Part shown: piece after piece, positions 5,889 to 56,256 of the stretch
Layout: each line of letters starts with the position of its first letter
How positions within the stretch are numbered: the first letter of the stretch is position 1
From: Minisyncoccia bacterium
Lineage (GTDB): Bacteria; Patescibacteriota; Minisyncoccia; 2-02-FULL-40-12; IGHO2-01-FULL-4-A
Assembly: GCA_050015375.1 (NCBI GenBank)
Contig: JBEKBN010000003.1
Location: 16,127-80,126 of the forward strand
Length of the DNA stretch: 64,000 nucleotides
Direction: 5' to 3'
Position numbers and translations under genes: made by a program
Notes under the pieces: generated by a model
Database searches by the model: none
What the model saw: the letters and a program-made list of their open reading frames with translations, nothing else
Told to the model about the DNA's origin: nothing

Positions 5889-5890
5889 AT

Positions 5891-8957: not shown

Positions 8958-8958
8958 T

Positions 8959-9030: not shown

Positions 9031-9033
9031 CAC

Positions 9034-11214: not shown

Positions 11215-11302
11215 CCCCGTCATAATAAAGTAGGATTTATTTAGAACTTTAGTGTTAAAGTGTGTTTAGATTTAAAGAAAACTAGAGGGTAAAATAAGTC
11301 CA

Positions 11303-14443: not shown

Positions 14444-14452
14444 ATAATAATC

Positions 14453-16888: not shown

Positions 16889-16890
16889 AC

Positions 16891-33933: not shown

Positions 33934-35212
33934 TGCAGGGATCATAAGCTCGGATCAATTTCTCGATCTCATGCTGGATCTCGCCTTTTAACTCGCCGAA
34001 GTTTTTAACGGAGGTGGCTTTTAGGTTTTCATTAATCATTGATTCAACCAGCCGGGCGATATCCTCCTCGATGTTCAACTGATTTTGGCCCGTCGGGACG
34101 ATGATGGCGCCATCTTTGACGATACCGTCCGCGCCGACGACGACTTTGTGGTAGAGCGTGCCCCGCGGCGCTTCAATGACACCAACGCCGATACCGGCGG
34201 CGATCGGTTTAGTCACGATTGGTTCATTGACAAATTTATTTGTTCTTAAAATATCTAAAGCGTCGTCAATGGAATGCAGGATCTCGATCGCTTGAGCGAG
34301 ATTATTCAAATAAATATCGGTTGATGGGAAAAGATCAAGCAACGCGCCGAGAGTTTCTTTTGTTTTCGGATTCAACAGATCCTTCGCCAGATTCATGCGG
34401 GCCAACGCGCCGACCATATAAGAATCGCCTTCGTGTTTGTAGGCCGAGGCCTGGGAGTAGGGAAGAACAACGCGCTCAAGATAGGACGCGTAGTTTTCTT
34501 CACTGATCTCTTCGCCGTCGCTGTTCTTAATAACACCATTCAAAAAGCCATACCTTTCCGGAACCAGAGCCATGAAGCCCGTCTTGCGGTCGAAATGCCA
34601 GGGGGCATTTTTGAAAATATCGATCAGCCGCAAAACCGCCGGCCGGATCTCCTCCAATTTTTTGATGGCACCGTCAATTCCGGCTTGATCCGGAAAATGA
34701 GTGAAACCACCAATGGTCGGATAGGGCGCGTGAACCGAACGACCGGCGATCAGCATTGAGAGAAAATTACCGGCGGCTTTGATGTCAAAAGCGTCGTGAA
34801 GGATCTGATGTTCGGTTTCGATATTTTCGTCAAAATCAAGGAACGAATCTTTGTTATAGAGGTCGGGCATCACGAACAAATATAGATGCAAAGCGTGATC
34901 GCGGATCATCAAACCGTACATGGTCAGCGTCCTCAACAAAACCGTCTGGGATGACGGCGTGATGCCCAGCGCTTTCTCGCAGGCCTCAATGGAGACCATG
35001 ATGTGGGCGTTCGAACAGGTGCCACAAATCCGCGATAACAACTGAGGCAGGGCGGCAATGGGTTTGCCTTTCATGGCTTCGGTGTAGAACCTTTTATATT
35101 CGCTGATGATGAATTCAACTTTCTCGACTTTGCCGTCGTTGATTTTCACGTTCAAAGACGCCTCGCCCTCGATCTTGGTCAACGATTCGATTGTGATGTC
35201 GGTTGTGTGCAT
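33893..35212 (-). CDS. [NiFe]-hydrogenase large subunit (group 3-like, 439 aa)
   Basis: N-terminal RICGTCSNAH and C-terminal DPCISCAAH nickel-binding motifs. Confidence 0.85.
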   Translation of the reverse strand: MHTTDITIESLTKIEGEASLNVKINDGKVEKVEFIISEYKRFYTEAMKGKPIAALPQLLSRICGTCSNAHIMVSIEACEKALGITPSSQTVLLRTLTMYGLMIRDHALHLYLFVMPDLYNKDSFLDFDENIETEHQILHDAFDIKAAGNFLSMLIAGRSVHAPYPTIGGFTHFPDQAGIDGAIKKLEEIRPAVLRLIDIFKNAPWHFDRKTGFMALVPERYGFLNGVIKNSDGEEISEENYASYLERVVLPYSQASAYKHEGDSYMVGALARMNLAKDLLNPKTKETLGALLDLFPSTDIYLNNLAQAIEILHSIDDALDILRTNKFVNEPIVTKPIAAGIGVGVIEAPRGTLYHKVVVGADGIVKDGAIIVPTGQNQLNIEEDIARLVESMINENLKATSVKNFGELKGEIQHEIEKLIRAYDPCISCAAHFLEIKWQ

Positions 35213-35692
35213 TTATTTTCTTAATTCGGTTATCAACGCGGTGGCTTTATTAACAAAATCCTCCGGGTCCATTGGACATCCCGGAACTTCGGCATCAACT
35301 TTGACAATGTCCGAGACCTTCAGAACTTTCGGCAGTGCGGCGAATTGATCCAAAAACGGCTGGATGCTTTGTTTTTGTTCGACGTTGAAAAAATTCCTTT
35401 GGCCTGACGGCATTCCGACTACGGCGCAGGCGCCGACGGCGACAAGTTTTTTCGATAGGTCGCGGATCTGTTTAAGTTTGTCGATTTGTTTTTGGGAGGC
35501 GATAGAACCTTCAATGAAAGCGATGTCGAACGGTTCCATTGTATTTTTGGTTTTCAAGGCCCGGAAATTCTTAAATTCCAAAATTTTGCTCCATTCTAAC
35601 CAATGGTCGTTCAAAAGCTCAGTCATCACGATCGTGTTGTCTTCGCAGCAGGAAAATGTGAACCAAGCGCATTTTAGTTTTTGGTCGGCCAT
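35213..35692 (-). CDS. [NiFe]-hydrogenase small subunit (group 3-type, 159 aa)
   Basis: FSCCEDNT, GACAVVG and PGCPM Cys motifs of the proximal FeS cluster. Abuts the large subunit gene. Confidence 0.75.
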   Translation of the reverse strand: MADQKLKCAWFTFSCCEDNTIVMTELLNDHWLEWSKILEFKNFRALKTKNTMEPFDIAFIEGSIASQKQIDKLKQIRDLSKKLVAVGACAVVGMPSGQRNFFNVEQKQSIQPFLDQFAALPKVLKVSDIVKVDAEVPGCPMDPEDFVNKATALITELRK

Positions 35693-35702
35693 AATTTTGT
35701 TT

Positions 35703-35872
35703 GACGGATGATACCTCCTATCACCACTTGAATCCCCAGCGAGGATTCTACGTTCTCTCGAAGTTTGTGGATTCTGGCGAGAGAAAAAATGATTATTGAA
35801 ATATTATATCATTTTTTCTCTCGCCAGACCGTGCAATCCACAACTTCGAGAGTGCTAGGAAGTATCATCCGT
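35703..35872. repeat. intergenic imperfect-palindrome element, copy 1 (family with conserved CCCAGCGAG and GACCGTGCAATCCACAA bulges)
   Basis: Arms gacggatgatac/gtatcatccgtc. ~90% identical to copy 2, with compensatory stem changes. Confidence 0.8.
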
Positions 35873-36669
35873 CAAGCCCTATCGTTATTTGCAAATCTAG
35901 TACTCATTCTAGTATATTTTTCCAAATATTTCACTTGACGATTTGTTAATATCTCGCAGGGCTGGTCCCAGTGGATCGAAATCATGTCTCCTGGCTTCAC
36001 CTCTTCCATAAAATCGTCATGCAATTTCCGGTGAATGATTTTGTCATATTCTGACCCGAAAGTAAAACCGGCAGGTTCAGAAAAAACCAGTGACTGAGTT
36101 TTTACGGTTAGCGCCGGCCCGTCAATTTTGATGATTTTTCCCCAGCTAACTCGGCAATGGTCGACATCGTCATAAGTTTTCAGTTCCATGAAATCCTGTT
36201 TTTTCTTCCAAATGTTATAAACATGAAAAGTGTGGTGCATTCTTGCCCCCACACCAAACAAGGATTGTTTGAACCCTGCGCTTGAAGCGCTTATCCTTGT
36301 TTGGTGTGGGGGTGAACCCCCTAGTTTATCTCTTAATATTTTAAATTCCTTTGGGCTTAATTTTTTATCAACTTGTGTCTCGATCAAGTGTTCATAAAAA
36401 TTTTTTTTGCCGATATTTTCCAGAAGTTCATTGCCCAGCCAGTATGCCTCAACAACTTTGTCGTCAAAGGGGTCTTTGATCTTATTGGCTTCGGCGATCT
36501 TTTGTAAATACGGATACATGGTTTTGAATTGTTTTAATAATAAAACCAATCCCTTGTCGGGACTTTGTTCGGTGATGTAACTCAAAACTTCTTTATTCGC
36601 TTCCGGCCCGCAAAGATGCAACCGGTTGGGTCCGAAAGCATAGCGGACGCAGCGCTGGAGGCCGTCCAT
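35872..36669 (-). CDS. hypothetical protein with an in-frame palindromic insertion
   Basis: 265-aa ORF. The 36246-36312 palindrome encodes ...GSPPHQTRISASSAGFKQSLFGVG... Confidence 0.4.
   Translation of the reverse strand: MDGLQRCVRYAFGPNRLHLCGPEANKEVLSYITEQSPDKGLVLLLKQFKTMYPYLQKIAEANKIKDPFDDKVVEAYWLGNELLENIGKKNFYEHLIETQVDKKLSPKEFKILRDKLGGSPPHQTRISASSAGFKQSLFGVGARMHHTFHVYNIWKKKQDFMELKTYDDVDHCRVSWGKIIKIDGPALTVKTQSLVFSEPAGFTFGSEYDKIIHRKLHDDFMEEVKPGDMISIHWDQPCEILTNRQVKYLEKYTRMSTRFANNDRA
36246..36312. repeat. GC-rich perfect inverted repeat (20-bp arms cccccacaccaaacaaggat / atccttgtttggtgtggggg) inside a CDS
   Basis: Arms are exact reverse complements. The spacer contains gcgcttgaagcgc. Confidence 0.8.
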
Positions 36670-37965
36670 TTATGTTTTTGGTAAAAGGGTTTTTAAATCA
36701 AAATTGGGATTAGCCAAATCCGGTTCCAAGCCGATGACTTTGGTGTCTTTTTCAATCAATTTTGATATAGTGGTCAATTCGTCCATGCCATTGATGGCCG
36801 TGGCGCCCACAAGTTCGCCGTACTGGATCAAGAGGCGAACATGGCTTTTTTCGATCGGCTCATCTCGTTCGACAATGATCCGATCGGGCTTAATCCCAAC
36901 GTCACCGACAAAAGCGATATTAATACCAAAGCCGGAAGTATTGTAGGAAGAGACGAGTTTGAATGGAATTTTCTTGCCGGCCATGTTCAAACCGGCGGTT
37001 TTGCCCTGGACTTGGGCATTGACCCAATTGCCCAACTGAACTTTTTCTTCCAAAATCACGTCGCTGTATTCGCTGGAGTCACCGGCCGTCCAGACATCAG
37101 GCAGATTGGTTTCCAAATATTCATTGGCCAGAATTCCGCGATTGACCTCAAGTCCGGAATTTTTCAGCCAGTCCATCTGGCAGAAGTTGCCGATGCCGAT
37201 AATGATCAGATCGCAGGGGATAGTCGTGCCATCCTTTAATTTTACATTTTCAACTTTTTCTGTGCCAAGCACCTCGTCCACTTCCGAATTGAGCATAACC
37301 TTCGCTCCACCTTTATCGATCGCTTCCGTAACCATCCGGCCCGAAATCGGGTCTAATATCGGATCCCAGAAATGCGGTTCGCGGATGATCATCGTAACCG
37401 GCAAGCCAAACGTCCTCAAAATATCGCACATTTCAAAACCAATGAAACCTCCGCCGACAATGACGGCGCTCTTGGTTGTTTTCAAACCTTCTTTTATTTC
37501 TTTGTAATCATCAATCGTCCGCAAAGAAAAAACACCGGCCTTGTCGGCGCCTTTGACTGGCCATTTCCGGGGTGTGCTACCCAAAGCCAAAAGCAGTTTT
37601 TCATACTGGATCTGCTGACTTGCCCCGTTAAAAATCTGATTCGCTTGCGAATCAGTGGCTTCATTTCTAATGGGGCCGTCATTGAGCGTGATGGTTTTGG
37701 TTTTCGGATCAAGCGCGGTCGCAACCTTGCCGCCTAAAAAAACGATGCCTTGTTGCTGATACCATTCCGGCGTTTTCAAAAATGCTTTTTCGGAACCGAT
37801 CTTATCTAAAAAATAATTCGGTTTGGAAAGCATGACCTTGGAATATAAAACATAATTTTCGTCATTGACGATGGCGATGCTTCCGGCCGGGTCAGTGGTC
37901 TTGATGCTTTCCGCGGCAGAAGTGCCGGCCACCCCACCCCCGATGATTAAATATTTGAAGTTCAT
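36670..37965 (-). CDS. FAD-dependent pyridine nucleotide-disulfide oxidoreductase (NADH oxidase / ferredoxin-NAD(P) reductase-like)
   Basis: N-terminal IIGGGVAGTSAAE, a second Rossmann VIVGGGFIGFEMCD, TAGD. Confidence 0.75.
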   Translation of the reverse strand: MNFKYLIIGGGVAGTSAAESIKTTDPAGSIAIVNDENYVLYSKVMLSKPNYFLDKIGSEKAFLKTPEWYQQQGIVFLGGKVATALDPKTKTITLNDGPIRNEATDSQANQIFNGASQQIQYEKLLLALGSTPRKWPVKGADKAGVFSLRTIDDYKEIKEGLKTTKSAVIVGGGFIGFEMCDILRTFGLPVTMIIREPHFWDPILDPISGRMVTEAIDKGGAKVMLNSEVDEVLGTEKVENVKLKDGTTIPCDLIIIGIGNFCQMDWLKNSGLEVNRGILANEYLETNLPDVWTAGDSSEYSDVILEEKVQLGNWVNAQVQGKTAGLNMAGKKIPFKLVSSYNTSGFGINIAFVGDVGIKPDRIIVERDEPIEKSHVRLLIQYGELVGATAINGMDELTTISKLIEKDTKVIGLEPDLANPNFDLKTLLPKT

Positions 37966-38213
37966 GGAAATATTTGTTTTCCCGTCTTGTCGAAAAGAAT
38001 TATCGCCTGAGTCGGACAGGATTGAGCGGCCATTGTGATAAGCTGGTCGTCAGTCAGGTCGGGATTGATGACAATTACTTTGTGCTCGTCATCCAATTTG
38101 AACATTTCCGGATCAACCGAAACGCACGACGCCACGCCAATGCACAAGTCGCGGTCTATTACTATTTTCCCGATATTCGACCCTTCTTTGTTCCTGACGT
38201 ATTCTATTCGCAT
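37962..38213 (-). CDS. single-cluster ferredoxin (Pyrococcus Fd-like)
   Basis: DRDLCIGVASCVSVDP...AAQSCPTQAI cysteine pattern. 83 aa. 4-nt overlap with the oxidoreductase gene. Confidence 0.6.
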   Translation of the reverse strand: MRIEYVRNKEGSNIGKIVIDRDLCIGVASCVSVDPEMFKLDDEHKVIVINPDLTDDQLITMAAQSCPTQAIILFDKTGKQIFP

Positions 38214-38264
38214 ATATTTTAATTATATAATAATTTTAAAAAAATTTAATGTAAAATTGATCTT

Positions 38265-38813
38265 TTACCAATAAAAAGTCTGCATAACTAATTCAATTTC
38301 TGAATATTTTTTCAATTTATTTACCCATTCCTGCTCCGTCCCAACAGGTACTTCTACACCCACGGTTAATACGGCCTTGATATCCAGTGACATATTACCG
38401 ATTTCCGATACGGCTGTTTCTATAGCTTGCAAAGGCATAGTTGGATTTAATTCACATTCAATCCAAAAAGCAGATGATATTTTGCATTTGCTAACTATAT
38501 TTTTAGTTGATAATTGTTTGATATAATAATTTAAATTCGGTGGCGAGCTGTTAGGAGCATCATCGCTTAATATTTTAAATATGCGGCTATTATAAATTTC
38601 AGATGTAGGTTTGAGGTTATTTTTTGATAAAAATGAAACCATATCATTAATACTAAGGGTTTTTTTGAATTGTATTGTTAATTCTCCATCAACAAGTTTG
38701 TGAACGTTACTGAAATTAGACATTCGCAGTCTCAAAAATATTATGATTCCCACAATGACAACCAGCGAGATAATTATTATAAATATAGGTATTTTTCGTT
38801 TAAAGATAGCCAT
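38265..38813 (-). CDS. membrane-anchored hypothetical protein
   Basis: N-terminal TM helix. 182 aa. Confidence 0.4.
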   Translation of the reverse strand: MAIFKRKIPIFIIIISLVVIVGIIIFLRLRMSNFSNVHKLVDGELTIQFKKTLSINDMVSFLSKNNLKPTSEIYNSRIFKILSDDAPNSSPPNLNYYIKQLSTKNIVSKCKISSAFWIECELNPTMPLQAIETAVSEIGNMSLDIKAVLTVGVEVPVGTEQEWVNKLKKYSEIELVMQTFYW

Positions 38814-38872
38814 TATTTAATTATAAAGCATTTGTTATACTTTTAAAACAACGGCCTGGTCCGGGTTTTTGA

Positions 38873-39526
38873 TTATTTAGAATATTTCTCTGAATAAAAT
38901 CGAATTAGTTCCTCGACTTCTGGGAGACAGGTGGGATTGCCGATGCCGACTTTGGTTCGTTTTTGGACGTCTTCAAGAGTCCGCGCGCCCTCGATGACCG
39001 CCGTTTCGATATCAGCTTCGGTGACTTTGGTTTGGGAGTCGATGACTTTTCCGCCGTCAACGATTATCCGGTCGTATTGGCCGGTTTTTTTAAACCAATC
39101 ATTGACCGCGCCTCTCAACGCCTTGTCGCCAAGGACCGAACAATGTATTTTTCTGTCAGGCAAACCGCCGAGACGCTTGGTTATATCTTGGGCTTTAATG
39201 GCCATGGCCTTATCCAATTTCATTCCGCCTTTTTCGGTGGCCATGACTGATAGCATCGAAGTCGCCGCGATTGCCGAAGCACAACCGAAGGTTCGCCATT
39301 TGAATTTCTTTATCCTTTCGGTTTTGGGGTCGATTTTCAGCCAAATTCTCATGACATCACCGCAAGCCGGCGAACCGATGATACCTTCGGCGTCAAAACC
39401 GGTGGTCTTAGAATCATCAGACAAAAAATTCCGCGGTTTGAAAAAATGTTTGCGGACATTTTTCGAGTAAACCCAGCTTTTGCCGAGGAATTGGTTGATT
39501 ATGTCGGGTTTCTTCACTGAACTCAT
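38873..39526 (-). CDS. NifU/IscU-like Fe-S cluster scaffold protein with C-terminal extension
   Basis: GSPACGDVMRIWLKID...RTFGCASAIAATS IscU Cys motifs. Confidence 0.75.
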   Translation of the reverse strand: MSSVKKPDIINQFLGKSWVYSKNVRKHFFKPRNFLSDDSKTTGFDAEGIIGSPACGDVMRIWLKIDPKTERIKKFKWRTFGCASAIAATSMLSVMATEKGGMKLDKAMAIKAQDITKRLGGLPDRKIHCSVLGDKALRGAVNDWFKKTGQYDRIIVDGGKVIDSQTKVTEADIETAVIEGARTLEDVQKRTKVGIGNPTCLPEVEELIRFYSEKYSK

Positions 39527-39545
39527 GGTAATAAAATAAATAATA

Positions 39546-39695
39546 TCTTCCCATCACCACTTGAATCCCCAGCGAGGATTCTGCGTTCCCTTGAAGATTG
39601 TGGATTCTGTCGAGAGAAAAAATGATTATGAAATATTATATCATTTTTTCTCTCGACAGACCGTGCAATCCACAACTTCAAGGGTGCTGGGAAGA
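39546..39695. repeat. intergenic imperfect-palindrome element, copy 2
   Basis: Same conserved bulges as copy 1. Stem differences are compensatory (tctgtcgagag/ctctcgacaga versus tctggcgagag/ctctcgccaga). Confidence 0.8.
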
Positions 39696-39701
39696 CATTA
39701 T

Positions 39702-41009
39702 TTATTTTTTCGCAAAAAAATGCGGGGTTTGGTCACCGACAAACGCTTTCGGCTGGGAAGTTTTTTCAGAAAAATTAGGATTGAGATTGATGGGCGACAT
39801 TTGGCGGAGTTTTCGGACGACTAACGGCAATTTTTTCAAGACATAATCAACATCGGCAATCGTTGTATATTTTCCGAGAGTGAAACGGACACTACCGTGG
39901 GCGAATTCATAAGGCCGGCCGAGGGCCGTCAAAATATGCGACGGCTCCAGCAATTGGGAATTGCAAGCCGAACCGGTGTTGACGATGATATTTTCTTTAT
40001 CCAGATACAAAACTGCCGCTTCGCCTTCAATGTCTAAAATGGAAACATTCAAAAAATTCGGCAGGCGATTTGTCGGATGGCCGTTCAAAATGACTTTCTG
40101 AATTTTGGAGAAAATACCCATGGTCAATCGGTCACGAAGTTTGGCAACTCGGGCGCACTCGGAATCTTTTTCATTGTGAACGAGCCACAGCGCCTCGCCA
40201 AAGCCGACAATACCGGGAACATTTTCAGTGCCGGAACGTACTCCGCTTTGCTGACCGCCGCCGAAAATTATTGGCCGGATCACCGTTCCTCTCCTTATAT
40301 ATAAACCGCCGATGCCCTTGGGTCCGCAAATCTTGTGAGCCGAAAGAGTCAACAAGTCAACGCCCAGTTTTTGAACATCCAGATCAAGATAACCGGCGAT
40401 CTGCGAAGCATCGGTATGAAAATATGGAATTCGTGATTCATGATTCATGATTCGTGATTCTCTGGTAGTTTTTACTAGTTTGGCGATCGGTTGGATCGTG
40501 CCGGTTTCATTATCGGCTGAAGTTATTGAGATCAAAATCGTCTTTTCATCGATCAATTTTGCCAGATCTTCCGGGTAAATTAACCCATCGGGTCTAACCT
40601 TAACTTCGACAATTTCAAAACCTTCTCTGGCAAGCTGTTCCGCGGCGGCAATGATGCCTTTATGCTCAATGTTGGAAATAATTATTTTGTTGCCATATTT
40701 TTTGTTGGCGCGGGCAGTTCCCAGAATCGCCAAATTATCAGCTTCGGTCGCCGAACCGGTGAAAACGAATTCACTTGCCCCCACACTCAAGGATTGAGTG
40801 TGGGGGTGAACCCGGCAATTCAAAACCGCTGAAATTTTATCAAGCGAATCATTGATGGCAATCTTTGAACGGTGGCCGAGAGCGTCAAGGTTGGAAGGAT
40901 TGCCGAAACTCTCGCTGAAGAACGGCATCATCAATTTCAAAACCTCCCGCCTGACCGGCGTCGTCGCGGCGCAGTCGAAATAATGGATGGATTGTCCTTT
41001 TCCCTTCAT
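39702..41009 (-). CDS. cysteine desulfurase (NifS/IscS class) with two short in-frame insertions
   Basis: PLP-Lys motif SAHKICGPKGIGGLYIRRG, class V aminotransferase fold. Insertions: the palindrome 40778-40806 (encoding HPHTQSLSVGAS) and the heptamer repeat 40433-40460 (encoding ESRIMNHESRI). Confidence 0.85.
   Translation of the reverse strand: MKGKGQSIHYFDCAATTPVRREVLKLMMPFFSESFGNPSNLDALGHRSKIAINDSLDKISAVLNCRVHPHTQSLSVGASEFVFTGSATEADNLAILGTARANKKYGNKIIISNIEHKGIIAAAEQLAREGFEIVEVKVRPDGLIYPEDLAKLIDEKTILISITSADNETGTIQPIAKLVKTTRESRIMNHESRIPYFHTDASQIAGYLDLDVQKLGVDLLTLSAHKICGPKGIGGLYIRRGTVIRPIIFGGGQQSGVRSGTENVPGIVGFGEALWLVHNEKDSECARVAKLRDRLTMGIFSKIQKVILNGHPTNRLPNFLNVSILDIEGEAAVLYLDKENIIVNTGSACNSQLLEPSHILTALGRPYEFAHGSVRFTLGKYTTIADVDYVLKKLPLVVRKLRQMSPINLNPNFSEKTSQPKAFVGDQTPHFFAKK
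40433..40460. repeat. 4 x 7-nt tandem repeat RTGATTC inside the cysteine desulfurase CDS
   Basis: gtgattc atgattc atgattc gtgattc. Confidence 0.8.
40778..40806. repeat. 29-nt GC-rich perfect palindrome cccccacactcaa-gga-ttgagtgtggggg inside the cysteine desulfurase CDS
   Basis: 13-bp exact arms. Confidence 0.85.
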
Positions 41010-41050
41010 ATGTCATATAATATATCAGTAAATCAAAGTTATTCAATATA

Positions 41051-42262
41051 ATGGAAAGATTTCCGAATTTCGAAAATTCTCCCAGTAAAGAAACACCCGA
41101 ACAAAAGAACAAGAGATATGCAGGGGGCCAAATAACGGAATCAGAGATTTTTGAGTATCAAAAAAACCCGGACAGTACTCTTTTTGAACACGAGCTGTCA
41201 AAAAAAATGGCATCTGGCGCGGAATACAAAATCAAGTTTCAGGTTAAGAGCCTTACAAAAAACTCGCTTGAAAAAACACTAGAGGGCGTTAGTGATTCGT
41301 GGGACGATGTATCGTTTGAGAACCTAAAGGAAACCCTGAAGCTTTATTTTGAACAAAAAGAATCAGGGATTCCCGGTCTTTTGAACGCGGAGTACTACAT
41401 TGCGGTTGACGGGGATGACATGCCAATAGCGATGACCGGTCTTTATTCTGTCGACATCCAAGGCACATCAGGATTCGCAACAAGGAACGAGCTTGATCCA
41501 AAAAAACATAATATGATTTTAGGCCTCGGCTGGTTCTCGGTCAGTAAAAAAATTGAAAGCCCGGGAATGGGCAAATATCTGCTTGATTGGACCGAAAACT
41601 TAGCGCGAACAAGAGGTGCCAATTTCATGGAGATCGAAACAGATGATTGGGATAATTCAAAAATGGCCGTGGCGCTCTACAGAAGATCGGGTTATCAGGA
41701 GGGCCATCCAGTGAAAGACTATTATGGGGCAGGCCGCGATCTAAATGCCTATTATTTTGATGCCGCAGGAGAACTGGAAAGCGAGCCAGTGGCGCCATCT
41801 GAAATAACCCGACAAGATGTTGGCGATTTGCTTAAAATTGCGGCCAAGATTAATTCCCCGGATCGGGTCGAGGAGTTTAAGGTTTGTCTTGAGCTTTTCT
41901 TGAAACAGCAGGAGGATAAAAGTGCTATTCTTAGTGGAAAATCGCTGGTTCTCCGAGACGCATCGGGCCATCCTGAGAGTTTCGCTATTTATTCGGACGG
42001 CATATATGATAATGAGCTTTTGATCTTTTGGGAGGGCGCCGATCCCGAGAGAGATGGCGCCCGAGAAAGATTGATTTCCAAACTGAAAGAAACCGCAAAA
42101 AGTTGCGACCAAAATGTCGTAGTCATTATGAAGGACAAGGAAGACCCCAAACTTATCAATCTTGGTTTTACATCGGCTGGCCAGGGAATCCCGGGGGTTT
42201 TTGGCAAAGATGATCCAACAAAATTACTCCATTTCATAAAACCATTAAATCCTGTAAAATAA
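41051..42262 (+). CDS. GNAT-fold-containing hypothetical protein
   Basis: LGLGWFSVSKKIESPGMGKYLL motif A-like. 403 aa. Confidence 0.4.
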   Translation: MERFPNFENSPSKETPEQKNKRYAGGQITESEIFEYQKNPDSTLFEHELSKKMASGAEYKIKFQVKSLTKNSLEKTLEGVSDSWDDVSFENLKETLKLYFEQKESGIPGLLNAEYYIAVDGDDMPIAMTGLYSVDIQGTSGFATRNELDPKKHNMILGLGWFSVSKKIESPGMGKYLLDWTENLARTRGANFMEIETDDWDNSKMAVALYRRSGYQEGHPVKDYYGAGRDLNAYYFDAAGELESEPVAPSEITRQDVGDLLKIAAKINSPDRVEEFKVCLELFLKQQEDKSAILSGKSLVLRDASGHPESFAIYSDGIYDNELLIFWEGADPERDGARERLISKLKETAKSCDQNVVVIMKDKEDPKLINLGFTSAGQGIPGVFGKDDPTKLLHFIKPLNPVK

Positions 42263-42267
42263 ATACC

Positions 42268-43338
42268 ATGGAAAAGATGCCAACAATTGGAAGCCGAATG
42301 GAAGAGCAAGCATGCAAACATGGCGTTGTGAAGGGCGAATTATGCGATGCATGCGAATTGGAAAAACAACCATCTTGGAACACGATCGAAAATCTCAGAA
42401 AGAAGAGTCATTTCAAGCGTTCGAACGAAGTTTTCCCAAACTGTTTCATTGAGATTGAAAACAAAAAGTTTAAGATTGAAATAATTGAAAACGGCAAAGA
42501 CCCATCGTTAAGCGATGTCCAGGCATTGTTTGAAAATACTTTTGGAAAAGAAGAGGTTGATCCGGAAGAAATTTTGCGTTCAGCGGTTGACGGCATAACT
42601 CCCTGGGAGACGGAAGACACAAAGTACAGAGTAGTTACTATCCGCGATGACGAGGGAAAACTGGTTACGACTGTTGCCGGCGCATCGCTGGATCTATTTG
42701 ATGAAAAAGGTGAACCAACTGGCGAATGTGCCTACTATGTCGGTTACGCCGTAACAGATCCCAATACTAGACAGGGCGGACTGGCTCGAGAGGCCTACAT
42801 TTCTGCTCTCTTGGATGTTGCCAGAGAAGCTCAGAAAAAAAATAAAGTTCTGAAGTTTGCCGTTGGCGAGTGTACTTACACTTCAGAAAAATTTTGGAAC
42901 AATGTCGGATGGAAGCGGGTTTATGCCCAAACAGGCGATAAGCGGGAATATACTGAGCTGAAATATATTCAACCCGCCCTGGAATTCGATGAGGATACCG
43001 GCGAGATTGCTGAAGGATCAGGCGAAGCACCCGAACACCTTATGATTGATGCTTTCGGACCCAAAACTCCCGGGAAAGAGGATGTCATGAGAGCGTATGA
43101 ATCGCTAATCTATTTTTGTAATGATTGGCCGCGCGAAGCCTTCAATAATGATCGAGCCGAAAAAAAGAAGACGGAATATCTGAACGGAATTAAAACAAAT
43201 TTTAAAGATTTTATGGATTCTAATGGCCAGCTGATCTATCTTGATGCCGATAACCGTGAAAAAGCGGTTAAGGAAGGTGTGGCCGTTATCGGATACACCG
43301 AAGCTGACCGCGGACAAGCCGGCGAAGAAGATTTCTAA
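42268..43338 (+). CDS. GNAT-fold-containing hypothetical protein (paralog-like to the preceding gene)
   Basis: TRQGGLAREAYISALLDVA motif A-like. 356 aa. Confidence 0.4.
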   Translation: MEKMPTIGSRMEEQACKHGVVKGELCDACELEKQPSWNTIENLRKKSHFKRSNEVFPNCFIEIENKKFKIEIIENGKDPSLSDVQALFENTFGKEEVDPEEILRSAVDGITPWETEDTKYRVVTIRDDEGKLVTTVAGASLDLFDEKGEPTGECAYYVGYAVTDPNTRQGGLAREAYISALLDVAREAQKKNKVLKFAVGECTYTSEKFWNNVGWKRVYAQTGDKREYTELKYIQPALEFDEDTGEIAEGSGEAPEHLMIDAFGPKTPGKEDVMRAYESLIYFCNDWPREAFNNDRAEKKKTEYLNGIKTNFKDFMDSNGQLIYLDADNREKAVKEGVAVIGYTEADRGQAGEEDF

Positions 43339-43568
43339 AATATTCTAAACAAAAATCCGTGTTCGAGCACGGATTTTTGTTTAGACGCGGTATCCTTAAT
43401 CATAACTTCAAGATAATATTATAACTTCCGTAAAGTTATCCACTTTTTTGTTAAAAAATATTTTTTAAGTGGTATAATTAAAGTATAAAATAATTCCTAA
43501 TAAATATTTTTCTAAACAAAAATTAATTTCTTGAAAAATCGGCAAAGAATTTTTTAAGAAAATATAGA

Positions 43569-44792
43569 TTGAAAAAATTTGACTATTTAATTCTCGGTGC
43601 GAGCGGAATGCAAGGCAGAATAGTCGCCCGAGATCTTCTAGAAAAAGGCAATGAGGTCTTATTGACCGATATCTACAAGGAAAACTCGCGGAAAAATTTG
43701 AAAATATTTCCAAGAGCAGCTTTTAGGTATCTGGATGTCCGGGAATTTCGCCGAATGATAGATCTGATCCGTGAGTCCGGAACAGACATCGTCATCAATT
43801 GCGCCGAATCGGACTGGAATCTTAGTGTTCACCGAGCTTGTCTGATCGCGGGCGTTCACGTGGTTGATATGGATTCCGACGTTGCCACGACCGAAAAACA
43901 ACTGGCCCTGGACGGCCAATTCAAGAAAAAAGGACTGACGGCGATCACCGGTTGCGGTTCAACTCCGGGCATCAACAATCTGATGCTGAATCACGCCGCC
44001 CAGTTTTTTGATACTCTGGAATCTGTCAATGCCGGTTTTGTCTGGGATTCAAACATGGATATTTTTGTCGCTCCGTTCTCGATCCCGAGCATCGTTTGGG
44101 AATTTACCCATCCGGCGACCGTCATTGAAAACGGAATTGTCCGCTTCAAGAAACCGCTGTCCGAAACGATCACGGTTGATCTGAGGGTGGTCGGCCGTCA
44201 GACCGGCTATCTTGTGGAACACGCCGAGGTCGCCACCTTCAATCATTATTTCAAAAACAAAGGTCTGAAAAATATTCATTTTTACGCCGGCTTTCCGAAA
44301 TACTCCGCCGATGTTTTTGAAAAATTAATTTATCTTGGATTGGCGAAAAGTGAAAAGATTGCCGTTGACGGAGGATTAAAAGTTTCTCCTCTTGATCTGG
44401 TGACCCAAGTCATCAAACGAATTGACTATCCGGAAAATTATTTTGAAAAAGAAAATCTTTGGGTGGAAATCATTGGCAAAAAAGACGGCCAGCCAAAAAA
44501 AATTCTCATGGAATGCATTGTGCCGCCGCTGGAGGGTTGGGAAGACGCCGGTTGCAATATTGATACCGGTTTTCCCGCTTCCATCATCGCCCAAATGATA
44601 AAAGACGGGCGGATCTCGGAACGGGGCAGTTTTTCGCCCGAGGCCGGCATCGTGCCTGAAGAAGATTTTTTCCGCGAACTTCGCTTGAAAGGCATGACCG
44701 TTTATCGGGGCGGCATCGCTATAAATTTGTTGAAGAACGAGATCACCATGCCCAAGCGAGCAAAGACCGAGCGAGTGGAGACGTATATTTAG
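43569..44792 (+). CDS. saccharopine dehydrogenase-like NAD(P)-binding oxidoreductase
   Basis: N-terminal Rossmann LILGASGMQGRIVARDL. 407 aa. Confidence 0.6.
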   Translation: MKKFDYLILGASGMQGRIVARDLLEKGNEVLLTDIYKENSRKNLKIFPRAAFRYLDVREFRRMIDLIRESGTDIVINCAESDWNLSVHRACLIAGVHVVDMDSDVATTEKQLALDGQFKKKGLTAITGCGSTPGINNLMLNHAAQFFDTLESVNAGFVWDSNMDIFVAPFSIPSIVWEFTHPATVIENGIVRFKKPLSETITVDLRVVGRQTGYLVEHAEVATFNHYFKNKGLKNIHFYAGFPKYSADVFEKLIYLGLAKSEKIAVDGGLKVSPLDLVTQVIKRIDYPENYFEKENLWVEIIGKKDGQPKKILMECIVPPLEGWEDAGCNIDTGFPASIIAQMIKDGRISERGSFSPEAGIVPEEDFFRELRLKGMTVYRGGIAINLLKNEITMPKRAKTERVETYI

Positions 44793-44793
44793 A

Positions 44794-45138
44794 ATGGATA
44801 AGACAATAGAAATGATTACCTACGACGATTTCGCCAAAGTTGAACTCAAAATCGCCAAAGTATCGGAAGCCGAGAGAATTGAAGGTTCAGAAAAACTATT
44901 GAAATTGCAAATTGACATCGGCGAACCGGAGAAGCGCCAGATCATTGCCGGCATCGGCAAGATTTATTCGCCGGAAGAACTTATCGGCAAAGAAATCGTC
45001 ATTGTCGCCAACTTGGAACCCAAGTCATTGATGGGTTTGGAAAGCAGTGGTATGCTTTTGGCGGCGACAGACGGCGAAGGCCGACCGATATTGCTTACGC
45101 CTGACAAAGAAATCGCGCCCGGAAGCAAGATCAAGTGA
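44794..45138 (+). CDS. tRNA-binding domain protein (CsaA/Trbp111/MetRS C-terminal-like)
   Basis: FAKVELKIAKV...LQIDIGEPEKRQIIAGI...VANLEPKSLMGLESSGMLLAA. Confidence 0.7.
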   Translation: MDKTIEMITYDDFAKVELKIAKVSEAERIEGSEKLLKLQIDIGEPEKRQIIAGIGKIYSPEELIGKEIVIVANLEPKSLMGLESSGMLLAATDGEGRPILLTPDKEIAPGSKIK

Positions 45139-45213
45139 TTAAAAAATATCGGAAAAATTAAAGTTTCAAAAACCTTGTTGTTCTTGAAACGTTGAAATTT
45201 ATCCGAAAGTATC

Positions 45214-45462
45214 ATGCAAGGTTATCCTAATTTTGTCGGTGTTCCCGGATACGGCTGGAATGCGCCGGCGTGGGTTGGCTGGCTTGTCGCGGTCGTTGTC
45301 ATCTGGTCGATAATTTGGAAGGGGATCGCTTTGTGGAAAGCGGCCGAAAAAAGAAGCAAGCCGTGGTTCATCATTTTACTTTTGGTCAACACCATCGGTA
45401 TTTTGGATATAATCTACATTTACGCCGTCAGCAAGAAATCGAAAGGGCAGGCGCAAGTTTAG
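45214..45462 (+). CDS. small membrane protein
   Basis: 82 aa, two TM helices. Confidence 0.35.
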   Translation: MQGYPNFVGVPGYGWNAPAWVGWLVAVVVIWSIIWKGIALWKAAEKRSKPWFIILLLVNTIGILDIIYIYAVSKKSKGQAQV

Positions 45463-45504
45463 CCCTCGCGCCATTTCCGAAATTCCAATTTTAATCTTCA
45501 GCTA

Positions 45505-45666
45505 GCTTCGGTGATCGCCTCTCTGATCACCACTCCAAAACCCAGCGAGTTTTGTTCGTTCCGTCAAAATTGTGGATTCAGCTTTTGGTTTGGCAGAACA
45601 TTATACCAAAAGCTGACCGTGCAATCACACAATTTTGACGGTGCTCCGAGAGGCGATCACCTCGCT
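45505..45666. repeat. intergenic imperfect-palindrome element, copy 3 (diverged)
   Basis: Retains CCCAGCGAG on the 5' side and GACCGTGCAATCACACA on the 3' side. Its own complementary stems: ggtgatcgcctctc/gagaggcgatcacc and ccgtcaaaattgtg/cacaattttgacgg. Confidence 0.65.
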
Positions 45667-45806
45667 TAATCGCCGGAATATTATTGAAGTTCGGAAATAG
45701 CTCAAATTGATTGTCAGGTACTTATCTGCGCGGTCGCTCGAAGAGGGTTGGCTTGCTCACCATCTCCCAATTTGTAAAATCCGCCAGCGGATGATTAAAT
45801 TGAGGT

Positions 45807-46478
45807 ATGAACATAAACGAAATATATCTGAAAATTGTTGCTCTGAACAAGGGTAAAATCACCGTTGCAATTGATGGCTATATTGGTTCGGGGAAAACAT
45901 TTATCGCGAATCAAATCATCAAAGATCATGAAAACGAGATTGTCTTGATTCACGGAGATGATTTTCTAGTTTCCGGCGCAGGAAGGAAAACCGCACTTGA
46001 AAAATATGGTCCGGATTTGGCGATGTCGGTATATGGAAATCGCTGGCAAGAAATTAGGCGTTTAGTGAAAGCATTCAAAAGAGGAGAAAATGAATTTAAA
46101 TTCAAGGGATTCGATCATGAGTCGGGTGAATGTAATATTGAGATGAGTTATAATTTCACGGGCAAGAAAATTTTAATTGCCGAAGGCGTATTTTTAATTC
46201 ACCCAAAAACAATTACCGATATTTGGGATTATAAAATTTATGTAAAAGGGGATATCGAGAAAATAGACAAACGGAGAATTGAAAGAGAAAAAGCCCGCTG
46301 GGGTGAAAAATATTTCCCCGAAACTCGCCCCGATTCCCACATGGGCATGGCCGTCCGCGCCTACAAAAAATTTATTGAGGAATACAATCCAGAACATCTC
46401 GCTGATTTGGTAATAGATAATTCCAATAAATTATGTCTTCGCGTAATTAATAAACTATTTGAAAACAAGAGTTTTTGA
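45807..46478 (+). CDS. P-loop kinase (uridine/cytidine kinase / PRK-like)
   Basis: Walker A IDGYIGSGKTFIA. Confidence 0.5.
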   Translation: MNINEIYLKIVALNKGKITVAIDGYIGSGKTFIANQIIKDHENEIVLIHGDDFLVSGAGRKTALEKYGPDLAMSVYGNRWQEIRRLVKAFKRGENEFKFKGFDHESGECNIEMSYNFTGKKILIAEGVFLIHPKTITDIWDYKIYVKGDIEKIDKRRIEREKARWGEKYFPETRPDSHMGMAVRAYKKFIEEYNPEHLADLVIDNSNKLCLRVINKLFENKSF

Positions 46479-46592
46479 GGGCTTGACGGCTGGTATTGAG
46501 GTTTGGTATAATGGAGGCATAGGTAAATTGAGCATCGTGCTTGCGAGCCATGAGTAGCGGAAGTTCTTTTAACTAGTTTACGGAGGAAAACT

Positions 46593-47030: not shown

Positions 47031-47094
47031 GTCTGACAGTTTTTGTCCCCGTTGATCTGTGATTCAAAGGAGAACCCAAGGGGAGCAGAACCTC

Positions 47095-47125
47095 AGCCGA
47101 TCTAGCAAGGGTCGGCTTTTTGTTT
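47095..47125 (+). terminator. rho-independent terminator
   Basis: agccga-tctagcaagg-gtcggct followed by ttttgttt. Confidence 0.6.
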
Positions 47126-47412
47126 GGAAGAAAATAATCGTCCGAAACGGATTAGTATTGAATCTTGAAACCTCAATAATTAATCAGCAACTAAGCGAGG
47201 CGATCGCGCCTCCAAGCAGTTCCAAAATTGAGAGCCGGCAAGGTCGGCTCAAGTGGCATAATGGTTGCCCGAAGGGCAACCCACCACGAGCCGCGTCTCC
47301 AATTTTGAAACAACGAGGCGAATCGCTGGTGAGCCGAGTGGTGACCAGAGGTACAATTGCCGAAGCTGGCAGAAATTAAAAATGGAATTTCAGAAATGAG
47401 ACGAGGCGAGCA

Positions 47413-48855: not shown

Positions 48856-50531
<1,676 letters not shown>

Positions 50532-54936: not shown

Positions 54937-55010
54937 GCCGGAGTAGCTCAACGGTAGAGCAGCACTTTTGTAAAGTGAAGGCTTGTCGGGTTCGAATCCC
55001 ACCTCCGGCT
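54937..55010 (+). tRNA. tRNA-Thr (UGU), with aberrant T-stem (1-nt bulge) and a 27-43 mismatch
   Basis: Acceptor GCCGGAG/CTCCGGC, D-arm GCTC-AACGGTA-GAGC, anticodon loop TTTGTAA. T-arm gtCggg-ttcgaat-cccac needs a bulged C. Confidence 0.6.
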
Positions 55011-55011
55011 C

Positions 55012-55656
55012 ATGTCTTACGATTTTTATAAATCCGAAGATTATAGACAAAGACAAAGTATATTAACAAAACTAAATTGGCAGAAAGGAGTTTTTGATCA
55101 TCGGATAAGGAATGAAAAGAGAATTTGTAAACGAAGGGGATGCCATAAAGTATTCTATGCCAAACCTAGCAATCCCAAAGTTTTTTGTTCCATATCCTGC
55201 GCTGCAATATACAATAATACAGGGCGGATTCGACGCAGAATAACTTATTGCTTAAATTGCAACAAAAAAACTCCACGCTCTGGCTATAAATATTGTAGTA
55301 ATGCGTGCCAAATCGGTTTTCAATACAAAACATACATTCAAAAATGGAAAGAAGGCAAAAAGAATGGATTAAACGAAAGTATCGGAGTCGTAAATAAGTA
55401 TGTTAAAAGATATTTAAGAGAAAAATATAAAAATGAATGTTGTTTGTGTGGTTGGTCACAAATAAATCCAAGAACAAATACAATTCCCTTATCAGCTGAT
55501 CATATAGATGGAAATTGGCGGAATAATCGAGAAGAAAATTTAAGATTACTTTGTCCAAATTGTGATTCTTTAACTCCAACCTATAAGAACCTAAATAAAG
55601 GTAGAGGAAGGAATATTAGATTGCTTGGACTAAAGAAAGTGAGTAAGTTAGTATAA
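55012..55656 (+). CDS. HNH endonuclease (free-standing, inserted within tRNA cluster)
   Basis: CCLCGW...ADHIDGNWRNNREENLRLLCPNCD HNH/Zn motif, plus N-terminal CxxC pairs. Starts 2 nt after the tRNA-Thr end. Confidence 0.75.
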   Translation: MSYDFYKSEDYRQRQSILTKLNWQKGVFDHRIRNEKRICKRRGCHKVFYAKPSNPKVFCSISCAAIYNNTGRIRRRITYCLNCNKKTPRSGYKYCSNACQIGFQYKTYIQKWKEGKKNGLNESIGVVNKYVKRYLREKYKNECCLCGWSQINPRTNTIPLSADHIDGNWRNNREENLRLLCPNCDSLTPTYKNLNKGRGRNIRLLGLKKVSKLV

Positions 55657-55670
55657 ATTTTATCAAATTT

Positions 55671-55753
55671 GGGCGGTTGGGTGAGTAGCAATACCAGCGC
55701 GCTGTAAACGCGCCGACCATCGGTCTTCGGGGGTGCAAGTCCCTCACCGCCCA
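55671..55753 (+). tRNA. tRNA-Tyr (GUA), class II with long variable arm. Unusual T-loop (TGCAAGT)
   Basis: Acceptor GGGCGGT/ACCGCCC, anticodon stem GCGCG/CGCGC with loop CTGTAAA, variable arm gacc-atc-ggtc, T-stem GGGGG/CCCTC. Confidence 0.6.
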
Positions 55754-55790
55754 CAAGAAATTTATATTATAACAACAGATGACATGATTA

Positions 55791-55862
55791 GCCGGGGTAG
55801 TTCAGTGGCAGAACGCTTTCTTGGTAAGAAAGAAGTCGTGAGTTCGATTCTCACCTCCGGCT
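55791..55862 (+). tRNA. tRNA-Thr (GGU)
   Basis: Acceptor GCCGGGG/CTCCGGC (one G-U), D GTTC/GAAC, anticodon stem CTTTC/GAAAG with loop TTGGTAA, T-arm GTGAG-TTCGATT-CTCAC. Confidence 0.85.
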
Positions 55863-55903
55863 CAGTAATTATTTGCAATTATAAATTTTCGATGATCATT
55901 TAT

Positions 55904-55933
55904 TTGAAAATTGAAAATTGAAAATTGAAAATT
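55904..55933. repeat. 4.3 x 7-nt tandem repeat TTGAAAA
   Basis: ttgaaaattgaaaattgaaaattgaaaatt, upstream of rpmG. Confidence 0.8.
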
Positions 55934-55939
55934 ATATTC

Positions 55940-56104
55940 ATGTCACAAGACAGCTTGATAAAATTAAGATGTTCAGTGTGTAAGAAGGGGATGAGCTTTA
56001 CAACAAAGAACAAGAAGTTGGTTACAAGAAAATTGGAATATAAAAAATATTGCAATGTTTGTCGGAAGCATAATCTATTTAAAGAAGTAAAACTCACCGC
56101 TTAG
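55940..56104 (+). CDS. rpmG: ribosomal protein L33 (zinc-ribbon form)
   Basis: MSQDSLIKLRCSVCKKGMSFTTKNKKLVTRKLEYKKYCNVCRKHNLFKEVKLTA. 54 aa, below the track cutoff. Confidence 0.85.
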   Translation: MSQDSLIKLRCSVCKKGMSFTTKNKKLVTRKLEYKKYCNVCRKHNLFKEVKLTA

Positions 56105-56113
56105 GTGAGCATC

Positions 56114-56149
56114 GGGGGCGTCGTTCAGTGGCAGGACGCTGGTCTCCAA
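56114..56149 (+). pseudogene. orphan 5' half of a canonical-type tRNA-Trp (acceptor, D-arm, anticodon stem, loop up to CTCCAA)
   Basis: gggggcgtcgttcagtggcaggacgctggtctccaa resembles typical bacterial tRNA-Trp 5' halves but has no complementary 3' half downstream. It shares only ggtctccaa with the intact tRNA-Trp 18 bp away. Confidence 0.6.
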
Positions 56150-56167
56150 TCCCATCACATTCAAAAT

Positions 56168-56238
56168 GGGGATGTCGGTTAACGGCAAACCAACGGTCTC
56201 CAAAACCGTGACTGTAGGTTCGATTCCTACCATCCCCG
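56168..56238 (+). tRNA. tRNA-Trp (CCA)
   Basis: Acceptor GGGGATG/CATCCCC, D GGTT/AACC, anticodon stem ACGGT/ACCGT with loop CTCCAAA, T-arm GTAGG-TTCGATT-CCTAC. Confidence 0.85.
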
Positions 56239-56256
56239 CGTTAAGAATGTGAGGGA

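Follow-up and report, generated by a model that had tools for sequence, protein, structure and literature searches.

The palindromic element studied here, copy 3 of four in a 64-kb stretch of DNA (hereafter the window), is a member of a previously undescribed family of non-coding interspersed hairpin repeats. In our scans, the family is confined to Patescibacteria, mostly to Paceibacteria/Minisyncoccia-type MAGs, and no earlier description of it was found in Rfam 15 or in the literature on CPR palindromic repeats, MITEs, and RAYTs. Its members may be non-autonomous repeats of a REPIN- or ERIC-like kind that are recognized as folded single strands, a reading to which we assign a probability of roughly 0.45. 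Patescibacteria are ultra-small bacteria with compact, very small genomes, whose non-coding elements and mobile DNA are poorly known.

Copy 3 and its relatives in the window

The covariance model of the family (R1, built from 13 sequences) matches copy 3 over model positions 1-165 with 141.6 bits (E ~1e-29), which bears out the initial annotation of this DNA, where copy 3 was taken for a diverged member of a palindromic family. Its claim of internal complementarity also holds: on the plus strand, 45510-45661 forms an interrupted inverted repeat in which three arm pairs are nested (Table 1), with predicted RNA folding energies of -75.8 kcal/mol (plus strand) and -83.6 kcal/mol (minus strand; z = -8.4 and -8.9, respectively; 0 of 200 dinucleotide-preserving shuffles folded as well). 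The extent first given, 45505-45666, is too short, as an outer pairing between 45470-45485 and 45686-45701 (inverted repeat I3) lengthens the hairpin to about 45468-45703. This extended stretch has a z score of -8.9 as RNA and -9.3 as DNA.

Scanned with R1 and with filters off, the window holds four copies of the family and no further ones in its 64 kb. Copies 1 and 2, to which the initial annotation referred, lie at 35701-35875 and 39533-39708, and the two conserved motifs that it had reported, ATCACCACT-N7-CCAGCGAG and GACCGTGCAATC, are present in copy 3 and exact in copies 1-3; for the former, 0.04 chance matches are expected in the window, even with up to three mismatches. When copy 3 is aligned structurally with copies 1 and 2, these motifs share alignment and model columns and are thus positionally equivalent, contrary to the refuting condition set in the initial annotation. 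Both had been described as bulges, which is right for the second and wrong for the first, a three-way junction with a 6-bp side hairpin and a 7-nt loop. Copy 4 sits between convergent genes and has outer arms in common with copy 3.

The statement that nearly all stem sequence differs was too strong, since copy 3 matches copy 1 at 60 of 116 paired positions. Between these two, 27 of the 58 model pairs are unchanged, 22 show a double change that still pairs, and 2 are changed on one side only; against copies 1 and 2, 22-24 of the 58 pairs differ on both sides with pairing kept. The stem of the side hairpin has undergone a full compensatory swap, reading GAATCC/GGATTC in copies 1 and 2 and CAAAAC/GTTTTG in copy 3. 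That structure is conserved through compensatory change is thus well founded, but the accompanying view that sequence is not conserved needs qualifying: the largely unpaired core is near-invariant, and copies 1 and 3 have retained the sequence of one helix of ~10 bp (TTGTGGATTC/GCAATC(A)CACAA). All family motifs are in register in copy 3, namely TCACCACT, the P2 loop CCAGCGA, CGTT, GTGGATT, and ACC-TGCAATCCAC.

Table 1. Copies of the hairpin family in the window and component parts of copy 3.
Feature	Position	Strand	Remarks
Copy 1	35696-35880	+	135.5 bits
Copy 2	39528-39713	+	131.7 bits
Copy 3, whole model match	45502-45669	+	model R1
Copy 4, more diverged	47191-47369	-	62.8 bits, E ~1e-11
Copy 3, arm pair	45510-45531/45640-45661		22 nt, 91% complementarity
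Copy 3, arm pair	45561-45574/45628-45641		14 nt, 100% complementarity
Copy 3, arm pair	45578-45589/45605-45616		12 nt, 100% complementarity
Copy 3, outer helix 5' strand and internal-loop motif CTAGCTTCGG	45468-45509	+	specific to the copy 3/4 subfamily; paired in extended folds
Copy 3, P1 5' arm (GGTGATCGCCTCTCTGATCA)	45510-45529	+	P1 pairs covary across the family
Copy 3, junction strand J1/2, CCACT	45530-45534	+	exact in all window copies
Copy 3, P2 side hairpin, stem CAAAAC/GTTTTG, 7-nt loop CCAGCGA	45535-45554	+	
Copy 3, junction strand J2/3, TTCGTT, with conserved CGTT	45555-45560	+	
Copy 3, P3 5' strand (CCGTCAAAA), then sequence-conserved helix strand TTGTGGATTC	45561-45579	+	
Copy 3, P4 stem-loop, AGCTTTTGGT / ACCAAAAGCT	45580-45614	+	inverted repeat I6
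Copy 3, conserved asymmetric bulge GACCGT, then helix strand GCAATCACACAA	45615-45632	+	exact in copies 1-3
Copy 3, P3 3' strand (TTTTGACGG) and P1 3' arm (TGCTCCGAGAGGCGATCACC)	45633-45661	+	
Copy 3, internal-loop motif CTCGCTTAATCGCC and outer helix 3' strand	45662-45703	+	

Architecture and covariation

We describe the family on the strand read in the initial annotation (the reader's strand), which is plus for copies 1-3 and minus for copy 4. The core is a three-way junction, P1-[CCACU]-P2-[CGUU]-P3, in an element of 150-235 nt. P1 is an outer stem of ~20-27 bp that closes with AUCA/UGCU, including a conserved U.C mismatch. Junction strand J1/2 (CCACU) leads into P2, a side hairpin of 6 bp whose 7-nt loop, CCAGCGA, is invariant, and J2/3, (N)CGUU, leads into P3, of 8-10 bp. 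Covariation favors placing CC/GG in P3 over P1, with copy 1 having U-A at that pair. Beyond P3, a conserved helix pairs UUGUGGAUUC with G(C)AAUCCACAA (in short form, GUGGAUU/AAUCCAC) and carries the 5-nt bulge ACCGU on its 3' side. The variable stem-loop P4 has a loop that ends in AUUAU(A); in copy 3, this loop is 15 nt long and ends in the conserved ATTAT(A), and its 3' motif ATTATAC is present in almost all members, regardless of P4 length or nested hairpins.

Two subfamilies stand side by side in this one genome. In the subfamily of copies 3 and 4 and of loci L029 and L037, P1 runs through an internal loop (CUAGCUUCGG / CCUCGCYUARUCGC) into a helix of ~25 bp, the arms of which differ in sequence among these members while remaining complementary.

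Across 44 distinct sequences, standard pairs fill 94.6% of cells. Shuffling lowers this share to 71.1%, with none of 500 shuffles reaching the observed value, and sliding the partners lowers it to 34-46%. Changes on both sides are seen in 51 of the 58 pairs, including 18 of 18 in helix 2 of the model and 6 of 6 in P2. Sequence conservation is concentrated elsewhere: conservation of at least 95% is reached in 19 of 49 unpaired columns, versus 16 of 116 paired ones, and more than half of the ~35 near-invariant positions are unpaired. J1/2 and the ATCA before it form the near-invariant block TCACCACT, at least 95% conserved in these 44 sequences, and ACC-TGCAATCCAC is near-invariant in the same set. 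The interior is the most conserved part of the element and the distal ends of P1 the most variable. P1 has a family-wide consensus, nRAGYTTGGYGARTAAYRCCTTCT, and the arms therefore belong to the element and not to its target. For the same reason, we rejected the idea that the P1 arms are copied from the target; a further reason is that the P4 of copies 1 and 2 is also conserved in another genome, at locus L016. Two further candidate pairings were discarded. Steric grounds speak against an intramolecular pairing of GCGAG in the P2 loop with the recurrent CTCGC motifs, whose position is not conserved; as for the ACCGU bulge, copies 1 and 2 do not retain its pairing with GACGGU.

Distribution and searches for known families

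Pattern scans covered contigs of one genome per GTDB species as well as metagenome contigs. The GTDB contigs yielded 11 true relatives, all in Patescibacteria MAGs (labeled Yanofskybacteria, Paceibacteria, "Saccharibacteria", or Patescibacteria group), and one chance match, L011. From the metagenomes came 32 loci (groundwater, lake, and sediment), of which one, L015, was rejected by the model. R1 gave 48 matches in all, four in the window and 44 in Patescibacteria MAGs or metagenome contigs, and a copy at locus L059 was found later. Phage, plasmid, and IMG/VR collections held no true matches; seven viral pattern matches were, like L011 and L015, rejected by the model as chance. Few copies are known so far, a single-digit number for each contig set. 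Copies cluster, with four within 12 kb here and two within ~5 kb in each of L016 and L035, and in JACPNJ01 they occur on three contigs.

No known RNA family accounts for the element. An Rfam 15 scan of the whole window at gathering scores returned tRNAs only, and an E-value scan of 35000-46500 matched the elements to generic miRNA-precursor hairpin models alone, far below thresholds. ARAGORN found six ordinary tRNAs and no tRNA- or tmRNA-like gene at the element.

Nor did a partner enzyme emerge from the surrounding genes. The 139 proteins that flank 36 element sites in other loci matched 142 families; the 25 commonest of these are all housekeeping families and include no transposase, reverse transcriptase (RT), or integrase. 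Pfam annotation of nearly all window ORFs showed no HUH enzyme, RT, or transposase, and no RAYT (Y1 HUH transposase) was found in the 64-kb window or among the 25 most frequent neighbor families. A separate low-GC island at 1-20 kb contains two large serine recombinases, a type III restriction-modification system, and a TnsA-like ORF.

Placement in operons

The copies fill entire intergenic spacers between housekeeping genes. Copy 1 takes up the whole interval that separates the genes for DUF6390 and the hydrogenase small subunit, and copy 2 the one that separates NifS from NifU; all four genes are on the minus strand. Taken together, the genes around the window copies encode hydrogenase subunits, DUF6390, ferredoxin, NifU, NifS, a tRNA-binding protein, DUF5652, and an S41 peptidase; the kinase-like gene downstream of copy 3 has homologs that are at most 45% identical and not syntenic. 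On the reader's strand, the 5' end of the element lies between -16 and +40 nt from the upstream stop codon, which in several cases is supplied by the element's own first bases (TAA, TAG, or TGA), and the next start codon often follows 1-14 nt past the 3' end. Orientation is mixed, with the reader's strand co-directional with the upstream gene at ~70% of loci (22:9 among unique loci, p = 0.03).

This placement, along with the retention at orthologous sites described below, gives real support to an alternative that we regard as possible but less likely, in which the element is a cis-acting RNA module of polycistronic mRNAs and provides a processing, stability, or decoupling signal. It could act as an RNase III-type cleavage site of the kind known between phage T7 cistrons, as a REP/ERIC-like 3' stabilizer, or as a fold that joins the upstream stop codon to the downstream start codon, and its core would bind a host RNA-binding protein or RNase. 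Every copy is in a likely transcribed spacer and abuts a stop codon, and often a start codon as well; the co-directional excess and the absence of the family from phage, plasmid, and viral collections also argue for such a role. However, ~30% of copies are reversed, and U-tracts are inconsistent: of 35 elements, only 5 are followed by a T-rich tail on one strand and only 8 on the other, so we rejected an intrinsic terminator. The organism, moreover, already has ordinary terminator-like hairpins elsewhere in the window.

A stand-alone structured ncRNA, present in several paralogous copies as an RNP scaffold, ribozyme, or regulatory sRNA, seems improbable to us. The three-way junction, the near-invariant positions, and the heavy covariation do resemble functional RNAs, and the lack of an Rfam 15 match would suit a new family. 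Against this, no conserved promoter or terminator was found flanking the copies, the ends of the element overlap the stop codons of neighboring genes, and neither the mixed orientation relative to genes nor the dispensability of copies at individual loci, described below, nor the scarcity of G.U pairs is what such an RNA would lead one to expect.

Gain, loss, and persistence

Relatives differ in the presence of the element at the NifS-NifU site. Here, the NifS-NifU spacer is 175 nt long, all of it element, versus 3 nt in L049 (NifU 78% identical) and 22 nt in L048 (NifU 84% identical), neither of which has a model match; on the contig with NifU homolog P0004 (79% identical), NifS and NifU overlap. 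The 22-nt spacer of L048 (AAGACATTATTCATTTTTATAC) matches the family consensus for the P1 arm (arm AAGACATTATTCA), and from this resemblance we read it as a probable deletion scar that has left a solo P1 arm. The close relatives' NifS-NifU operon thus works without the element, which counts against the cis-acting module. For the repeat reading, in turn, speak this difference in presence and absence, the solo arm in L048, and the occurrence of several copies per genome at unrelated loci.

Other sites have kept their copies. L003 and L014 share five syntenic genes with 47-85% protein identity and an element between the same two of them; the two elements are ~80% identical, with compensatory swaps in P1, P2, and P3. 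An ortholog of copy 1 is found at the same site in L059 (118.5 bits; DUF6390 70% identical), and in L008 and L040, the element is at a shared site after YqeY. An intact core, kept with compensatory changes at orthologous loci where flanking proteins are only 47-85% identical, weighs against the repeat reading, as it argues equally for a cis function at the level of the host. In L022 and L043, the element follows the same prepilin-peptidase stop codon in opposite orientations, which fits either in-situ inversion through the P1 arms or re-insertion, and which is hard to square with a cis-acting RNA module.

Target-site duplications are not clear in the family, and none is evident at the window copies. 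TA on both sides is seen in ~6 of 20 well-defined members and is indistinguishable from an extension of the palindrome, and the termini are inverted repeats only trivially, the whole element being a palindrome. In ~350 kb of loci, we saw no parent element that shares these ends.

Folding strand and the origin of complementarity

The indicators of which strand folds disagree. Of 42 elements, 41 fold better on the reverse strand, with a mean difference of -8.2 kcal/mol. Among non-standard cells, the reader's strand has 58 A.C against 31 G.U and 57 pyrimidine-pyrimidine against 15 purine-purine, although the columns behind the A.C and G.U counts are about equal in number and few independent events may underlie the difference. 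Read from the opposite strand, these cells would become G.U and G.A, among them a tandem GA in P4 and a loop, AUAG/AUAG, in P1. Energies and mismatches therefore favor the reverse strand, whereas the orientation bias relative to genes and the cUUCGg-type motifs of the copy 3/4 subfamily favor the reader's strand. For the cis-acting module, these motifs are a point in favor and the thermodynamic preference for the opposite strand a point against. UNCG/GNRA loops and near-identical population variants are conflicting or underpowered for the choice of strand, and GC skew in the window simply follows gene orientation and does not reveal the direction of replication.

Very few pairs are G.U, and nearly every change is a double one. 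This is unusual for a selected RNA, and so weighs further against the cis-acting module; it fits a constraint on both strands or on DNA, and it also fits a one-step origin by replication template switching, a process that can create and maintain hairpins (PMC8794818). The same observation, together with the plentiful nested palindromes of these genomes, gives a slim chance to the view that the elements are inert palindromes, their complementarity produced by template switching or arm-to-arm correction and neither fold nor function under selection. Such a process leaves unexplained the near-invariant asymmetric core (side-hairpin loop, junction strands, and bulge) as well as the retention at orthologous loci, where substitutions in neutral DNA would be expected to have reached saturation.

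A minor rival, which we consider very unlikely, takes the better folding of the reverse strand at face value and sees the element as a single-strand DNA hairpin presenting a promoter-like or priming site. The apical loop of that strand reads T|ATAAT, in which T is the last base pair of P4 and ATAAT is unpaired, and this arrangement resembles the fork-junction geometry bound by sigma-70 RNA polymerase. The element would then be comparable to single-strand DNA promoters and single-strand origins, for example Frpo, ssoA, and M13 ori(-). Members retain the loop motif whatever the length of P4 or the number of extra loop hairpins, its variants TAAAAT, TACAAT, and CATAAT preserve the A at -11 and the T at -7, and TGn stands upstream of it in copies 1 and 3 and in L005. 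Yet there is no -35 box at a fixed distance, AU-rich loops are common, and a promoter here would fire antisense into the upstream gene at ~70% of loci. The family has no link to plasmids, phages, or transfer functions, and the remainder of the conserved core would be left without explanation.

Nested insertions and mini-palindromes

Palindromes are themselves inserted into some members, at CTCGC sites in P4 in L025, L032, and L034 and inside the ACCGTG^CAAT bulge in L022 and L039. Judging from these positions, single-stranded parts of the element appear to attract further palindromes.

The same genomes contain a second family, of mini-palindromes (CCCCACAC...GTGTGGGG) that lie in frame in conserved genes and are also nested within members of the large hairpin family. 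One adds 11 residues to NifS and is absent from the NifS of L048 and L049. Another adds 22 residues to DUF6390, is absent from all but the three closest homologs, and persists with compensatory changes in L059; one further copy is inside the TGT gene.

A repeat proposed to be recognized as a folded single strand

We favor the reading of the family as a non-autonomous, REPIN/ERIC-like repeat. Such a unit would have been copied into many intergenic spacers, presumably by way of a folded single strand, and its persistence would depend on the ability of one strand to fold into the long stem of P1, P3, and P4, with the three-way junction, P2, the ACCGU bulge, and the AUUAUA loop. The near-invariant, mostly unpaired nucleotides would serve as the docking site of an unlinked protein acting in trans, probably a nuclease or transposase specific for single strands, or else an RNA-binding protein, and the stems would need only to remain complementary. 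Since the copies sit inside operons, they are necessarily transcribed too, as very stable RNA hairpins. Besides the retention at orthologous loci, several observations count against this reading: no partner enzyme is adjacent, target-site duplications are not clear, known copy number is low, and the conserved interior and variable termini are the inverse of what is seen in REPINs and MITEs.

It is also conceivable, though we think it unlikely, that the family represents a CPR-specific new class of functional folded nucleic acid, whether a catalytic or protein-recruiting RNA (a ribozyme or RNP), an operon-processing signal, or the substrate of a single-strand-specific mobilization enzyme. If so, such an enzyme might also drive the in-frame mini-palindromes in essential genes. 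The large family and the in-frame mini-palindromes together suggest that sequence turnover through hairpins contributes significantly to shaping these reduced genomes.

Its distribution over MAGs makes the family a candidate for phylogenetic profiling, by which a protein that reads it might be found. Its entry as a new Rfam or repeat family would also improve annotation, as gene callers place spurious ORFs on the element (examples are the "gene" at 4756-4998 of L059 and the window ORF at 47059-47379). Short-read contigs of this organism end precisely at copies 1 and 2, and the family is a candidate explanation for assembly breaks in CPR metagenomes.

Comparison with known systems

Integron attC sites and retron msr-msd RNAs share some features with the family. 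Like attC sites, which are recognized as folded single strands, it conserves structure and a few extrahelical bases over stem sequence, a superficial likeness, and its order of outer stem, small hairpin, and long hairpin matches the a1-msr-msd-a2 topology of retrons. This reading is, however, effectively refuted by gene context: there is no integrase or RT in the window or among the 25 most frequent neighbor families, and copies are dispersed among housekeeping operons in both orientations. The variable ends have no R''/R' GTTRRRY core, and junction strand CCACU has no G where the branching G of a retron would sit. Terminal R boxes, one-orientation cassette arrays next to intI, and a length of 55-140 nt mark attC sites and not the family described here.

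The hairpins cut by RNase III in phage T7 are irregular, have conserved internal loops, and lie between cistrons of one transcript. The family resembles them in having irregular intercistronic hairpins with conserved internal loops, but the T7 hairpins are ~60 nt long, have one orientation, and are not dispersed repeats. Rickettsia palindromic elements (RPE) are repeats of a reduced genome that are tolerated beside or inside genes. The window's mini-palindromes, in frame in NifS, TGT, and DUF6390, are like them in this respect, whereas the large family is intergenic and at most gives the upstream gene its stop codon and last few codons.

ERIC/IRU and Correia/NEMIS MITEs are imperfect palindromes of 100-150 bp that occur in transcribed intergenic regions in either orientation, where their stable RNA hairpins can affect mRNA processing. 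They are conserved in sequence over their whole length and have defined terminal inverted repeats and TA duplications. Our family is similar in location, size, and occurrence in either orientation, and TA flanks some of its members; it differs in its covarying structure, variable termini, and conserved asymmetric core.

REPINs, doublets of inverted REP units that enclose a variable spacer and are mobilized by RAYT/TnpA-REP, are non-coding, multi-copy extragenic hairpins that are predicted to fold in single-stranded DNA or mRNA, with compensatory changes in their arms, local clusters, long vertical persistence, and, mostly, no adjacent transposase; REP singlets are read as REPIN remnants (PMC3116915). 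The family shares with them the hairpin fold, the compensatory changes, the clusters, the persistence, the probable solo remnants, and the lack of an adjacent transposase. The differences are equally plain, in that our family conserves its inner core and varies its outer arms, which is the reverse of REPINs, has a three-way junction with an asymmetric side hairpin, and lacks a GTAG/CGTC-tagged REP unit at its ends. It is also longer, at 150-235 nt versus ~90-110 nt, with few known copies per genome compared with dozens to hundreds for REPs, and its host phylum is the Patescibacteria.

Recurrent pentamers and nested palindromes

The pentamer GCGAG/CTCGC is strongly over-represented within and around the elements of the large hairpin family: about 9 instances per strand would be expected in 8.8 kb, and 43 and 57 were counted. 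Every member carries it in the loop of the side hairpin P2 (CCAGCGAG); it is also frequent on both arms of the apical stem-loop P4, at a tandem mismatch, and in the internal loop of the outer stem P1.

We also identified a second, smaller family of palindromes (mini-palindromes), 27-67 nt in length and following the pattern CCCCACAC...GTGTGGGG. Some of these are nested in the large elements of three other loci (L025, L032, and L034), with CTCGC as the nesting site. In two further large-family members (L022 and L039), a structured segment (TCCCGA...TCGGGA), 50-70 nt long, is inserted exactly in the conserved bulge, at ACCGTG^CAAT. Extra small hairpins are present in the P4 loop directly 5' of the conserved ATTATAC in L014, L017, L029, and copy 4 of the window.

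Coordinates of features (window positions unless a locus is named)
Feature	Position	Setting
Large serine recombinase	1-790	Low-GC island; truncated by window edge
Large serine recombinase	18519-20009	Low-GC island
Type III restriction-modification methylase	4047-5888	Low-GC island
Type III restriction-modification Res helicase	5891-7879	Low-GC island
TnsA-like endonuclease ORF	7866-8213	Low-GC island
tRNA-Phe and tRNA-Arg	8959-9107	Low-GC island
GCGAG/CTCGC examples	45542-45549, 45661-45666, 35738-35745	
Large-family members	L022:487-697, L039:3800-4033	With structured insertion in the bulge
ORF (+)	47059-47379	On copy 4
ORF	L059:4756-4998	On copy 1 orthologue
Mini-palindrome	40778-40806	Within NifS
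Mini-palindrome	50092-50118	Within TGT
Mini-palindrome	36246-36312	Within DUF6390
Further mini-palindromes	L016:5757, L032:6796	
Four tRNA genes and 214-residue ORF	55012-55656 and 54937-56239	
Giant ORF	57190-64000	Continues past window end

Effects on annotation and assembly

One ORF lies on copy 4 itself and another on the orthologue of copy 1 in the related locus L059, each either listed or called by gene finders. Both are almost certainly spurious, a mis-annotation caused by the large hairpin family. Short-read contigs are also broken at these hairpins, with L046 and L047 terminating at copies 1 and 2.

No copies of the large family were found in window positions 1-20000, a low-GC island (34-41% GC versus about 45% elsewhere) that is probably an integrated mobile element. 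Elsewhere in the window, four clustered tRNA genes (Thr, Tyr, Thr, Trp) are interleaved with an ORF weakly matching HNH_3 endonucleases, and the sole Pfam match of a giant ORF (>2270 residues) is a weak HTH_17 at its N-terminus.

Mini-palindromes within protein-coding genes

Conserved protein-coding genes host mini-palindromes in frame. The copy in NifS accounts for 11 extra residues (VHPHTQSLSVG) relative to the homologues in the relatives L048 and L049, and that in DUF6390 for 22 relative to 243-residue homologues, its hairpin being retained in the L059 orthologue via compensatory changes. In their behavior, these in-frame mini-palindromes resemble the Rickettsia palindromic elements.
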